DNA from: a phage
Length of the DNA stretch: 64,000 nucleotides
Sequence record: PZ674596.1
Strand: one strand, 5' to 3'
Made by a program: the position numbers. Numbering within the stretch: the stretch's first letter is position 1; each line of letters opens with the position of its first letter. Positions 21,001 to 27,000 of this stretch are shown here, in pieces.

Positions 21001-24000
21001 ACGCGTACAGAGCAAGATGCTGCATTGGCGACTCAAATCACAAACTTAGAGTCTCAAACGGCAGCCAACATTTCCGCGGCGGTCACAACTGAAACGACAG
21101 CGAGAACGCGGGCAGATAATGCTCTGAGTGGGCGAATCGATACTCTGAAAGCAGAGGTGAATGGAAATACCGCGACAATTCAACAGCAGGCAACAGCTAT
21201 TGCTGATACCAACAAAAAAGTGTCAACCGCGTGGACGTTGAAAATGGAGACTTCAACGAGCGGAGGGCAGAAGTATGTTGCCGGTATTGCGCTTGGTATT
21301 GACACCACTGGGCTATCTCAGTTTTTGGTTCAGGCGGACAGGTTTGGTTTGGTCAACTCTGTTAACGGGAAGATCACAACGCCATTTGTTATCGAAAACA
21401 GTATCGCCTATATGAATGGAGCGTATATCAAGGATGGCACAATCACCAATGCAAAAGTAGGCGATCTGCAATCTACCAATTTTGTTAGCGGTAGATCTGG
21501 ATGGCGATTCGGCAAAAATGGAACGCTTGAGATCAACGGTAATAGCGGCGGCAATGGGCGATTGGTTATAAATGGTCAGCGGATTGACGTTTATGACGAT
21601 AACAACGTCTTACGAGTAAGAATTGGCCGTCTGTGATGGTGGAAAAAAAAATTTATATCGGTAAAAATAGGTAAGTATCTACTTAATGGCGGGCAAGGAT
21701 AGCCCGCCAAATCAAGGAGCATATTCAACATGTGGTACAGGGAAGGTACTATCACATTTACACAGGGCAGCAATACTCTGGTTGGGGCAGGGACAGCCTG
21801 GAACGTAACAGCTAATGGTGTGTTGCCGGGGATGATCGTCATTGGCCCCGACAATAAGCTGTATGAGATCAAGCGCGTAACCAGTGATACGAACATTGTT
21901 CTCTCAGAACCTTATACCGGCGAAACTCAGTCTGAAGTTCCGTGCCGAATCATTACGACCTATGAAGGCGACTTAACACAGTTTAGCGCGCGCTTTACTG
22001 CGCTAATGTCGCGTATGTCGGCTGATTCCAAGTCCATACGCAGTTGGTTGACTGCGCTGGATGAGGTGACAATCGAGCGTGAAGACGGTACAGAAGTGAC
22101 CGTTAAGCCGCTAATGCAGATCGTCAACGAGCACAACGAAAACGTTGAGTGGTATAAAAATAACACTGACGCGATTGATGCTGCTGGCGACAAAGCTCGT
22201 GAGGCGGCGGCCAGTGCTGCCGCAGCAGCAAAAAGCGCCAATGCCGCTGGAGAAAAAGCCTCTCAAGCGTCTCAAAGTGCATCCGCTGCGGCATCCTCAC
22301 AAAGTGCCGCAAGTGCGAGTGCAACTGCTGCGAAAAAATCTGAAACGAATGCTGCAGCGTCACAAAAATCTGCAGCCACTTCTGCATCCACCGCGACCAC
22401 GAAGGCGTCAGAAGCTGCCACCTCAGCCCGGGATGCGGCGGCCTCAAAAGAGGCAGCGAAATCATCAGAAACGAGCGCAGCCTCGAGCGCCAGTAATGCC
22501 GCTTCCTCGGCAACGGCGGCAGGAAATTCCGCGAAGGCGGCAAAAACGTCCGAGACGAACGCCAGGTCTTCTGAAACGGCAGCGGGACAGAGCGCCTCGG
22601 CTGCGGCAGGCTCAAAAACAGCGGCTGCGTCGTCTGCCAGTGCCGCGTCAACAAGTGCCGGGCAGGCCTCAGCCAGTGCCACCGCCGCCGGAAAATCGGC
22701 AGAAAGTGCCGCATCGTCTGCTTCAACTGCCACAACGAAGGCTGGCCAAGCCACTGAACAGGCCAGCGCAGCAGCGAGGTCTGCTTCCGCAGCGAAGACA
22801 TCCGAAACGAACGCGAAAGCGTCGGAAACCCGTGCAGAATCCTCAAAAACGGCAGCCGCATCGTCCGCCAGTTCGGCGGCGTCATCGGCATCATCGGCGT
22901 CTGCTTCAAAAGATGAGGCGACCAGACAGGCGTCAGCAGCGAAGGGCAGCGCCACGACGGCATCCACGAAAGCAACAGAGGCGGCAGGCAGTGCGACGGC
23001 AGCATCTCAGAGCAAAACTGCTGCTGAATCCGCTGCGACCCGTGCGGAAGCTGCTGCTGATCGTGCTGAAGAGATTGCCGGTGCAGTTGCGATGGAAGAC
23101 GCAAGCCTTACAACTAAAGGTGTTGTGAAACTTAGCAGTGCTGTCGACAGCACCAGTGAATCGCTGGCCGCAACGCCAAAAGCAGTTAAAGCAGCCAATG
23201 ACAATGCGAATAGCAGGGTGCCATCTAACCGAAAAGTTAACGGTAAAGCACTGACTGCGGATATCAAATTAACGCCGAAAGATATTGGTACTTTAAATTC
23301 AGTAACGATGTCTTTCTCTGGCGGGGCAGGGTGGTTCAAACTGGCTACGGTTACCATGCCACAAGCGAGTTCCATCGTTTACATCGCATTGATTGGTGGC
23401 GCTGGTTACAACGTCGGCTCCCCACATCAGGCAGGCATTTCAGAACTGGTTCTACGAGCAGGCAATGGAAACCCCAAAGGGATTACAGGTGCTTTGTGGA
23501 AGCGTACAGCTGTCGGATTAACGAATTTCGCCTGGATCAACACATCCGGCGATACATATGATATTTACGTTGAGATTGGCAATTATGCGACTCGTGTAAA
23601 TATCCATTGGGATTGTACTGCAAATGCGACAGTTTCTATTTATACATCGCCAACATATTCAGCGAGTAAGCCTTCCAGCGTTACCGATGGTGTTGTTTAT
23701 ACGATGTATAGCACACATCAGAAACCGACGCCGTTAGATATTGGAGCACTGCCAACAACCGGAGGAACAGTTTCAGGTCCGTTGTCTGTTACAGGTGGAT
23801 TAACTGGTTCATTGAATGGTAATGCAAGTACAGCCACGAAATTGCAGACGGCAAGATCTATCGGTGGAGTTGTTTTCGACGGTTCTGCAAATATTAACCT
23901 TCCAGGTGTAAACACTACGGGTAATCAGAACACCACTGGTAATGCTGCAACTGCTACAAAACTTCAGACGGCAAGAACTATCGGCGGCGTGAGCTTTGAT

Positions 24001-27000
24001 GGTACTGCGAATATTAATTTGCCAGGTGTTAATACGACTGGTAATCAGAACACAACGGGCAACGCGGCTACTGCTACGAAGTTGCAGACTGCGCGTACTA
24101 TCAATGGGGTGTCGTTTGACGGCTCGGCAAATATTGCCTTGTCGCCAGCAAATATAGGTTGCCCGGCATCTCCTACTGGTTGGTTAACTACAGGAAGTAA
24201 TGGAGGAGCAATAACGACAGCCCAGTTAGTTACTTTGTTGCAAAATAACGGGGCATTCAGTACGAAAGCATGGATCGCTCGTTGTGCATGGGCGTATGCG
24301 AATAGTGCATCCATACCAGACAGTGAAACTGGTTGTGGCATTATTCCACTGGCGGGTGCTGTGATAGAAGTATTCAGCAATAATACCAACAATTACACCA
24401 TTCGAATAACAACGGCCACTACGACAAATGTCTCTGGTGCACTCACTAATGCGGAGTTTATCTATGTGTCTAATGGCTCAAGTTATTCACCTGGATGGCG
24501 CAGAGCGTATAACACTAGAAACAAACCAACAGCTTCTGATGTAGGAGCATTACCGCTTTCAGGTGGCACATTATCTGGAGGGTTAACGTCTTCTGGTGAG
24601 ATCGTTTCAAAATATGCAAATGGTTTCCGCATTGCTTACGGTAACTTTGGGTTCTTTATCCGTAATGATGGGGCGAACACATATTTCCTGCTAACAGCAT
24701 CAGGAGACACATTAGGTTCATGGAACGGTTTGCGACCTATTACAATTAATAATACCAGCGGTGCTGTATCAATTGGTAATGGACTAAATGTGACTGGTGG
24801 CGTAAATGGTAGTTTGAACGGTAATGCTTCAACAGCTACGAAGTTGCAAACAGCGAGAAACATCAATGGTGTTAAGTTTGATGGTTCAGGCGATATCAAT
24901 ATTAATACATTGGTATCTCGTGGCCGAGTTACGGCGTTAAGCGGCTCTACTCAAGGCACTGCTGGCATTCAAATGTATGAGGTGTACAACAATAGCTACC
25001 CGACCACGTATGGCAACGTATTGCACATGAAAGGTGCGAGTGCTGCTGGTGAGGGCGAGTTGCTTATTGGCTGGAGTGGTACGAGCGGTGCACATGCGCC
25101 GGTTTTCATTCGCTCCCGAAGAGATTACACAGGTGCGGCATGGTCAGCGTGGGCGCAGGTATATACATCAAGGGACTCCATTCCTGGTGTGAATGCCACT
25201 GGTAATCAGAACACTACTGGTAATGCCGCAACCGCCACAAAATTGCAGACAGCAAGGAAAATTGCTGGTGTGGCGTTTGATGGCTCTGCCGATATAACTT
25301 TGACTGCGGCTAACCTTAATGCTTACACGAAAACAGAGGTAGCAAACCTTCTAAGTTCCTATGCAAGCAGATCATCACTGACAGGCTATAGTGGCAACCT
25401 GGATATTGTTGCTGAAACACTGGTTGTCAAATCAGGCGGTAGTGGAGGGTTTGCTATATGGGATATTGGCACAACTACTAGCGGTGCCAATATGTACATT
25501 GATCCAAACCCAGGTATCAATACAGTTTGGCGTTCAACGTCTTCAAGGCGCTATAAAAAGGATATTGAAACATTACAAGATCGATATGCTGATGAACTTT
25601 TGTCATTAAGACCTGTTTGGTATCGTTCAATTTGTCGAGGTGACCGAAAGGATTGGGGGTATTACGGCCTTATTGCTGAAGAGGTTGGTGAGATTGCCCC
25701 GCAATATGTCCATTGGCGTGAACCAACAAATAATGATTCTCCAGAAGATATTTCCTCAAATGGTATGGTCGCTGAAGGAGTGATGTATGAGCGTTTGGTT
25801 GTACCACTCATTCATCATATTCAGCAATTGACCAAAAGGGTTGAGGAGCTTGAAACGAAGTTAAATTCACCTAAAGAATAAACAACTTCAATCGGGGCTG
25901 GAGCTAAACCAGCCCCTGCTTAAAAGTATAAGGATATATTTATGAGCTATGGTGCACAGGTTTGGTCGCCATCAAGACAGGAGATGGTCAATGCGTTGGC
26001 CCCTGTTTATTACCTCGATTATTTTACTCCCTCTGGTTCAGGAAGTAGAACATATGAGGTTGAGGCGGGATTGGGAATCGACTATTACATAATGGACGTA
26101 ACCAATGGAAAGTACACAAGTCTTACGGTTTCTGGAAATACCATTTCGTGGTCTGGAGCTAGTGGTAATTTAAACATATTGGTTTTTCAAAAATAATGTA
26201 CGGAAGCAAGATATATCGATCTGACGGGAAGGTCTGGATGTCTCCTTCTTTGTCTCCTATCGTTTTTCAGAGAAAGCAGGTTGTTTCTTTGTCCGGCGGA
26301 ACAGAGTTTAACACCAAAATATCTCCAGATCGTTCACCGATTATTTTTGTTGCCTATTCGAAAGCTGTTTCATTAATAGCCAACAGAATAGTGCGTAACA
26401 ACCAGGTGATTTACAGTTTCGGAGGTCAGGGTAGCGACTCTAGTGCCACGATATACGTATTTTCGAAAGGTATAGCCAAAAAAGAAACTTGGGGCATGAG
26501 TTTTTTCAATGCACAAGGGGAGGAAATCTATAATACGGCAAATATCCCACTTTCATTTACCTTTCTTAATAATACGGAGTGGAACAGCTCTGGAGGGCAT
26601 GTTTTTGATTACCCTCCAGCGATAATCCCAACATATGCGAATGTGTTCGCTGTTCCAGTACCGGGCGGAGCCATGACAATGGTTTATGGATATGCGGCAT
26701 ATGGAAATACTGTTAGCTCGATATTCGTAAACCAACTTAATGGCGGCCATAGTTTTAGCGTAAATGGCAGAGTACCGGTAATAAATAGAAATCTGTATAA
26801 CTGATGAGTAAATGATGAAAAGATTATTTCTAACAATAGCTGTTGTTCTCTCTCTTACTGGCTGCCAGAAATTGCCGACACCTATATGTTATGGTGAAGC
26901 TATCATTGGTGGACAGGAGACAGTCATACCCATATATGCTGTTAAAAAAGTGAACGACTATACCTTATACAAAGCGGGTAGCATCTATAACTGGCGATGG

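Follow-up and report, generated by a model that had tools for sequence, protein, structure and literature searches.

The window analysed here, a 64,000-nucleotide (nt) stretch of phage DNA from sequence record PZ674596.1, contains at 21730..25881 (+) an open reading frame (ORF) encoding a tail fibre of 1383 amino acids (aa). The frame opens with ATG, preceded by a Shine-Dalgarno sequence, AAGGAG, located 10 nt upstream (21714-21719), and 93 nt separate it from the J-like gene that lies before it (16906-21636, +, 1576 aa), where Phage_Tail_Tip, Phage-tail_3 and FNIII-A_GpJ domains indicate a lambda-J-like tip-attachment gene. The fibre gene is 100% identical to genes of 109-110 kb Escherichia coli plasmids in RefSeq, annotated as 'tail fiber domain-containing protein'; p4_0.2 of E. 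coli 4/0 is one carrier of this allele. In a plasmid with the identical gene, the order is tape measure, minor tail proteins, C40 peptidase, tail assembly protein, J-like fibre and this fibre, which in lambda terms corresponds to tape measure protein, M/L/K/I-like genes, J and fibre. Phage Cyrano carries a fibre gene with 96% identity over the first 3634 nt, and nucleotides 1-513 of the gene show 77.6% identity to the fibre of Salmonella phage SSU5. Because of these identities and of the order of the neighbouring genes, the carrier element is recognized as an SSU5-like E. coli phage-plasmid of about 110 kb, with the gene in the side-tail-fibre position, directly after the J-like gene; a preliminary description of the locus, which proposed a modular side tail fibre, is confirmed on this point. 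The protein matches PHROG 3299 from end to end, while NCBIfam holds no model for it.

The fibre is composed of successive modules with different closest relatives. Residues 1-150 (21730..22179, +) form a putative N-terminal attachment domain specific to the SSU5 family, delimited by the 77.6% nucleotide identity to SSU5 and by an AlphaFold2 (AF2) model. The model, with a predicted local distance difference test (pLDDT) score of 70.8, shows six beta-strands followed by helices, and the published description of the gpStfN collar resembles this arrangement of six strands and a helix (PMC12617516).

The following 300 residues (aa 151-450; 22180..23079, +) include 120 Ala, 70 Ser and 31 Thr. The region 22180-23080 had been reported as an Ala/Ser-rich low-complexity stretch; the composition is as described, but the term understates the regularity of the array, which consists of 43 uninterrupted heptads of the form xAxxSA(S/T), with no stutter. 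In the autocorrelation of the residues, peaks are confined to multiples of 7 (z values between 7 and 10 out to lag 63), and at the DNA level the repeats are spaced by multiples of 21 nt. All 43 heptads have Ala at their second position, 33 have Ser at the fifth, and 30 have a further Ala at the sixth. The stretch corresponding to gene nucleotides 525-1478 is 85-92% identical to stf/stfR of lambda-type prophages, and 4121 of 5426 complete E. coli genomes match the gene, mostly over the rod. Autocorrelation, composition and stf/stfR identity together define aa 151-450 as the known Stf-type proximal coiled-coil rod, with a predicted length of about 44 nm if helical. In lambda (Ur-lambda), gpStf residues 102-393 form a trimeric proximal coiled coil, followed by a hinge, as seen by cryo-electron microscopy and cryo-electron tomography (PMC12617516); by analogy, the rod described here may also be trimeric. 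ORFs of 326, 327 and 231 aa, found in other frames and on the minus strand between 22124 and 23128, were considered and rejected, as by-products of the GCN-rich heptad repeats rather than genes.

The rod is followed by a Phage_fiber_2 motif (PF03406; aa 459-499; 23104..23226, +), recognized by Pfam with an E-value of 2e-19 and matching residues 105-156 of Mu S. This motif probably represents the hinge region, and a mosaic breakpoint falls within it (aa 487-493, gene nucleotides 1461-1478). The overall similarity to lambda-type Stf/StfR includes a gene located after J, an Ala/Ser heptad coiled coil and a PF03406 motif past the rod; with some chromosomal stf genes, the identity over aa 175-750 amounts to 95-99%. 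The fibre differs from the lambda-type Stf in three respects: its N-terminus is of the SSU5 family and not detectably similar to the Stf N-terminus tested, over its distal half it belongs to the Mu S / P1 S / gp34 type and is not gp37-like, and it ends in a fused S74 chaperone, in place of a separate downstream Tfa.

Beyond the motif, a globular shaft domain (aa 500-683; 23227..23778, +) matches phrog_21552 and phrog_381, shares 95-99% identity with chromosomal prophage stf genes and with phage phi458, and ends in a PLDIGALP joint. A second shaft domain (aa 804-1017; 24139..24780, +) is of the type found in Mu S, P1 S and T4 gp34. It contains a Gp34_trimer domain (PF21446; aa 906-1006, E 6e-31) and gives sequence matches to the PDB entries 8ju3, 5yvq, 4uxe and 5nxh; fibre genes of P1-like plasmids are 82-90% identical at the nucleotide level over aa 686-1176. 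Unlike the Mu S and P1 S systems, the fibre gene lacks an invertible C-segment and an adjacent Cin/Pin recombinase, and differs in its tip and in its assembly mechanism. A further segment, aa 1058-1150 (24901..25179, +), for which no Pfam match was obtained, is an exchangeable knob cassette, which is replaced in a Cyrano-type fibre (L001).

The two shaft domains and the knob are bordered by copies of a 40-aa unit containing the motif KLQTAR. At least five copies had been proposed; a hidden Markov model built from them finds exactly five, with the motif at aa 704, 744, 784, 1038 and 1171. Units U1, U2 and U3 (23779-23898, 23899-24018 and 24019-24138, +) are arranged in tandem, with a period of 40 aa or 120 nt, and the array (23779..24138) is detected by Tandem Repeats Finder at 74-76% matches. 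U4 (aa 1018-1057; 24781..24900, +) precedes the knob and contains breakpoints at aa 1018 and 1042; U5 (aa 1151-1190; 25180..25299, +) follows it, is of a terminal type (...DITLTAANL) and contains breakpoints at aa 1176 and 1185.

The unit was also considered as a form of the Pfam 'Phage tail fibre repeat' PF03406. This was rejected, as PF03406 matches only aa 459-499; the segments U1-U3 and U4 have no relevant Pfam match even at E<=10. Searched as a profile, the 40-aa unit hits NAETADKLSTARTI...SFDGSANVTI in the beta-helical stalk of Dec, a protein of phage L (6e3c, E 5e-5), as well as the corresponding stretch of the tail fibre gp47 (8vbx, E 8.5e-5). In both proteins the copy is single and has a 7-residue insertion, unlike the tandem 40-aa arrays of the fibre gene. 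These profile matches would fit a role of the unit as a shaft element.

The C-terminal part consists of a distal tip (aa 1191-1270; 25300..25539, +) and of a domain of 113 aa (aa 1271-1383; 25540..25878, +). The tip, presumed to be the receptor-binding end, is homologous, together with the domain that follows it, to proteins of T1-like phages; its AF2 confidence as a monomer is low, and it includes the predicted mature C-terminus. The final domain had been described as an intramolecular chaperone-like domain at about 25450-25881. Within this range, the peptidase S74 profile PF13884 scores 27.2 bits with the whole protein and 30.3 bits with the fragment, against a cut-off of 22, and covers aa 1271-1327 (25540-25710). 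Ser1271 and Lys1276 are present in every one of 32 aligned homologues, whose identity goes down to 30%; the motif reads RSTS/SRRYK, the slash marking the predicted cut, and the distant homologues read SD-x-R-L-K at the same site (alignment A1). Over residues 121-233 of the fragment, the AF2 model has pLDDT values of 77-94, and it ends in a long helix at 203-229. A Foldseek search of the PDB with this model returned chaperone domains as the only meaningful matches, namely MyRF 7dc3 (E 1.5e-5, probability 1.0), GA-1 3gud and K1F 3gw6, although sequence identity to the solved S74 members is only 11-22%. Profile, dyad and modelled fold therefore agree in pointing to a domain of the S74 type, as originally suggested, with a chaperone-like structure in the C-terminus.

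The known members of the S74 family (K1F endoNF, the T5 L-shaped tail fibre pb1, GA-1 gp12 and MyRF) likewise end in a domain of about 113 aa which opens with the cleavage serine, have a Ser/Lys dyad with +5 spacing, and share the same predicted fold with a long C-terminal helix. The dyad corresponds to S911/K916 in endoNF and S587/K592 in MyRF, and the cut is made just before the Ser (PMC8326128). What distinguishes the fibre described here is its RSTS/SRRYK motif and the distance of about 80 residues from the last shaft unit to the predicted cleavage site. A cut between T1270 and S1271 would yield a mature fibre of 1270 aa and a 113-aa fragment.

Alternatively, the domain might stay uncleaved and serve the mature fibre as a cap, with a role in structure or in receptor binding. 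The closest relatives of the tip and S74 module are proteins of about 231 aa from T1-like coliphages, which are annotated variously as 'lateral tail fiber chaperone', 'tail fiber protein' or 'chaperone of endosialidase', and cleavage of this fibre is predicted, not observed; both facts leave some room for such a cap. Retention is nevertheless considered improbable, given the invariance of the dyad residues in the 32 homologues and the match of the predicted fold to auto-cleaving chaperone domains, and given that mutation of either dyad residue abolishes cleavage in the characterized members (PMC8326128).

The T1-like coliphages in question (BEBK14, PeterMerian, Jahat_MG145, orkinos and KarlJaspers), with genomes of about 50 kb, show 48-57% amino acid identity over about 63-78% of a 233-aa query, and in the S74 part their nucleotides are 70-72% identical. 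In these phages the module stands alone as a protein that has a short coiled-coil N-terminus of its own, whereas here it is fused to a fibre of 1200 aa. In relatives whose tip is different, tfaR or a gp38-like 'receptor-recognizing protein' is present.

The tandem KLQTAR units were compared at the codon level. Adjacent copies had been described as keeping the peptide NQNTTGNAATATKLQTARTI while differing at many synonymous sites, between 23884-23947 and 23998-24061. The observation holds, but not at those positions: the two ranges lie 114 nt apart, against a period of 120 nt, and are consequently 6 nt out of register, encoding SANINLPGVNTTGNQNTTGNA and DGTANINLPGVNTTGNQNTTG. The peptide is found at 23923-23982 and 24043-24102, where 14 of 60 nt differ, in 12 of 20 codons, all changes being synonymous. 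Compared over their whole length, U2 and U3 agree at 37 of 40 residues, yet at only 85 of 120 nt, the proportion of synonymous differences (pS) being 0.79; the copies are thus clearly not identical at the nucleotide level. Between units, pS ranges from 0.62 to 0.81, which corresponds to saturation. Paralogous units within the gene share 54-75% of their nucleotides, while orthologous units in other phages share 82-100%, and because of this difference the copies appear to have old and partly separate histories.

The divergence had been attributed to selection against recombinational collapse: synonymous differences would be maintained since tandem copies identical at the nucleotide level would recombine away and shorten the fibre. 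RecA-type recombination usually needs about 20-30 bp of identity, and the longest exact runs between the tandem units of the window, 14 and 8 nt, are well below this size. Furthermore, 31 of the surveyed pairs have 35 or more of their 40 residues in common, and among these the best pair of the window (91 of 120 nt) is at the diverged end. If adjacent units avoided shared codons, however, same-codon use should be lower than expected by chance, and it is not. By taking the codon usage of the fibre gene and of the J-like gene as reference, 12.8±2.8 of the 37 identical residues of U2 and U3 are expected to use the same codon, and 15 do; in the other register, the two tandem pairs of the window give z values of +1.5 and +0.7.

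The comparison was extended to 80 viral contigs encoding the unit, from which 306 units in 68 unique fibre ORFs were collected, including 126 successive pairs exactly 40 aa apart. With expectations derived from the codon usage of each ORF, these pairs should share 1485±28 codons, and the count is 1918 (z=+15), so that shared codons are over-represented and not depleted. Nucleotide identity between the surveyed tandem units varies continuously from 47 to 117 of 120, and arrays of two to five similar copies persist in other viral contigs, with 4.1 copies at 96% matches in L083, 2.3 copies at 89% in L009 and 4.8 copies at 85% in L022. Because such arrays exist, there is no general barrier against similar copies. 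Avoidance of shared codons was accordingly rejected, and a selective origin of the divergence is not supported and is regarded as improbable: close orthologues and saturated paralogues are sufficiently explained by age and mosaic origin. The codon divergence is consistent with saturation of synonymous sites under strong purifying selection on the peptide, and the pattern across the survey with duplication followed by neutral decay of these sites. The array of the window lies at the old end of the range and has short exact runs, and is therefore in effect recombinationally inert; this state is a consequence of its age and not evidence of selection. Second-order selection is conceivable, but nothing in the data requires it.

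The environmental viral contig L022 has a fibre ORF with up to 12 KLQTAR units, and also contains collagen-like Gly-X-Y arrays with a 9-nt period (GGTGCTCAA), at 1647-1777 and 3660-3827.

The gene as a whole is a mosaic, since its closest relatives differ from stretch to stretch, with sharp transitions. In the distal region, breakpoints could be assigned to 15 classes, at aa 686-690, 700, 715, 724-730, 737, 744-754, 798, 808, 906, 933-937, 1018, 1126, 1176, 1185 and 1212. Ten of them fall inside KLQTAR units, which cover 24% of the region (binomial P = 6e-4, a value to be read with the caution that the classes were drawn after viewing the data, from about 145 listed BLAST rows, and that the events are not independent). 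About 860 E. coli records match the distal half. The transitions are seen in three sets of relatives. A lambda-type stf gene on an E. coli chromosome (L003, 3468-7958; NZ_CP148416) shares aa 174-750 at 95-100% nucleotide identity and is 100% identical for 191 nt through U1 into U2, but similarity is lost just past the KLQTAR codons of U2. This stf contains only two units and is followed by tfaR and by the pinR invertase gene, and the same proximal fibre is therefore used with a wholly different tip and assembly system. In the Cyrano-type fibre L001, the long high-scoring segment pair ends at aa 1056, U4 and U5 are both retained around a different knob (aa 1057-1140), and from about aa 1212 onwards the tip is a different one as well. 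In fibres of P1-like plasmids, nucleotide identity is about 83% over two stretches, aa 686-937 and aa 1030-1196. Judged from these alignments, the KLQTAR units appear as joints which flank exchangeable domain cassettes and coincide with mosaic breakpoints.

A recent duplication of the five units within the gene, in a single lineage and with no mosaic, would account for the 120-nt periodicity that is still detectable in the DNA at 74-76% matches. It is, on the other hand, highly improbable, as the synonymous sites of the units are saturated and the closest relative changes sharply from one stretch of the gene to another (SSU5, lambda-type stf, P1-like S fibres, T1-like tip proteins). A more general proposal is that the unit acts as a universal recombination adaptor for cassette swaps between unrelated phages, and that in the persisting lineages the copies within a gene have drifted, or were selected, below the length required for recombination. 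This is considered unlikely; if true, it would imply a balance between exchangeability among genes and stability within the gene, and thus a weak form of the selection hypothesis. Tail-fibre evolution by motif-mediated module exchange is reportedly the classical picture, associated with Haggard-Ljungquist (1992) and Sandmeier (1994).

Taken together, domain identities, dyad, predicted fold, heptads, breakpoints and codon statistics, as observed here, are best explained, with a probability of about 0.8, by a trimeric side tail fibre of an SSU5-like phage-plasmid, assembled as a mosaic of known modules, with the KLQTAR units as joints and with neutral codon divergence between them. According to this model, the SSU5-family N-terminal beta-domain would anchor the fibre at the tail tip, and would be followed by the heptad rod of about 300 residues, the PF03406 hinge, the beta-structured shaft of Mu S / P1 S / gp34 type, a short tip and the S74 chaperone. 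The chaperone domain would trimerize and fold the distal end, and then cut itself off between Thr1270 and Ser1271, by means of the Ser1271/Lys1276 dyad. Self-release would leave the mature fibre of 1270 aa and make a separate Tfa-type assembly protein unnecessary. The KLQTAR units would be conserved elements of the shaft and of its joints, at or inside which recombination between fibre genes of different phages may have repeatedly occurred; their codons would differ because the copies are old and come from different sources, with no need for a dedicated anti-recombination selection.

A number of points weigh against this model, in addition to the way in which the breakpoint classes were drawn. 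Residues 1-150 show no sequence similarity to the N-terminus of one chromosomal lambda-type Stf (E 0.36), and a Foldseek search of the PDB with the N-terminal model gave only weak, generic beta-barrel matches (best E 6.6e-3); the proposed anchoring of this domain at the tail tip is suggested by gene position only. At the other end, a phmmer search of PDB sequences with the C-terminal 233 aa returned chance matches and no S74 chain, so that the S74 assignment rests on the Pfam profile and on the predicted fold. Cleavage, trimerization, chaperone function and receptor binding are likewise predictions for this fibre. Finally, the codon test is weak for a single pair of 40 codons, and a weak selection for divergence is conceivable.

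The genes around the fibre were also considered. Upstream, coiled-coil repeats of the type DISAAI..EQEARxxADxALxxQIxxLxSKV occupy about 550 aa of the J-like protein, past its FN3 region and before the C-terminal Phage_Tail_Tip domain. Two GC-rich stem-loops, read from the sequence, bracket the fibre gene. The first, GGCGGGC-aaggata-GCCCGCC (21688..21708, +), lies between the J stop and the fibre gene; the second, GGGGCTGG-agctaaa-CCAGCCCC (25894..25916, +), lies 13 nt past the fibre stop codon. Both fail the rule of the terminator scan (the T-run rule in the case of 25894..25916), and in a simple scan for promoters and terminators no signal exceeded the expectation from shuffled sequence.

Downstream of the fibre, the region 25942-27045 (+) encodes an 84-aa protein (phrog_557), a 202-aa protein (phrog_425) and the exclusion lipoprotein Cor (NCBIfam, E 9e-23); no Tfa-type assembly gene is present among these three. 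The same genes are found in SSU5 at 68% nucleotide identity; L001, a Cyrano-type relative, lacks them, and there genes of 324, 693 and 252 nt come directly after the fibre. The possibility that the tip and the three downstream genes form one T1-like block was rejected, since the genes are present in SSU5 itself, and only the S74 part is T1-like. Further on, downstream of lysis-like genes, a toxin-antitoxin-like pair, composed of a GNAT-family acetyltransferase and a DUF1778 protein, is located at 28577-29400 (-).

The fibre gene is an uncharacterized but ordinary member of known families, as each of its modules, and the mosaic principle itself, are already known. The analysis provides a module map of a phage-plasmid fibre, with a predicted maturation site at T1270/S1271 and with cassette boundaries at the KLQTAR units. 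Although of modest practical use, the map may help in host-range engineering and in the annotation of 'tail fiber domain-containing protein' entries. For the biology of these elements, it indicates a single pool of fibre modules, common to SSU5-like phage-plasmids, lambda-type prophages, P1-like plasmids and virulent phages of the T1-like group.

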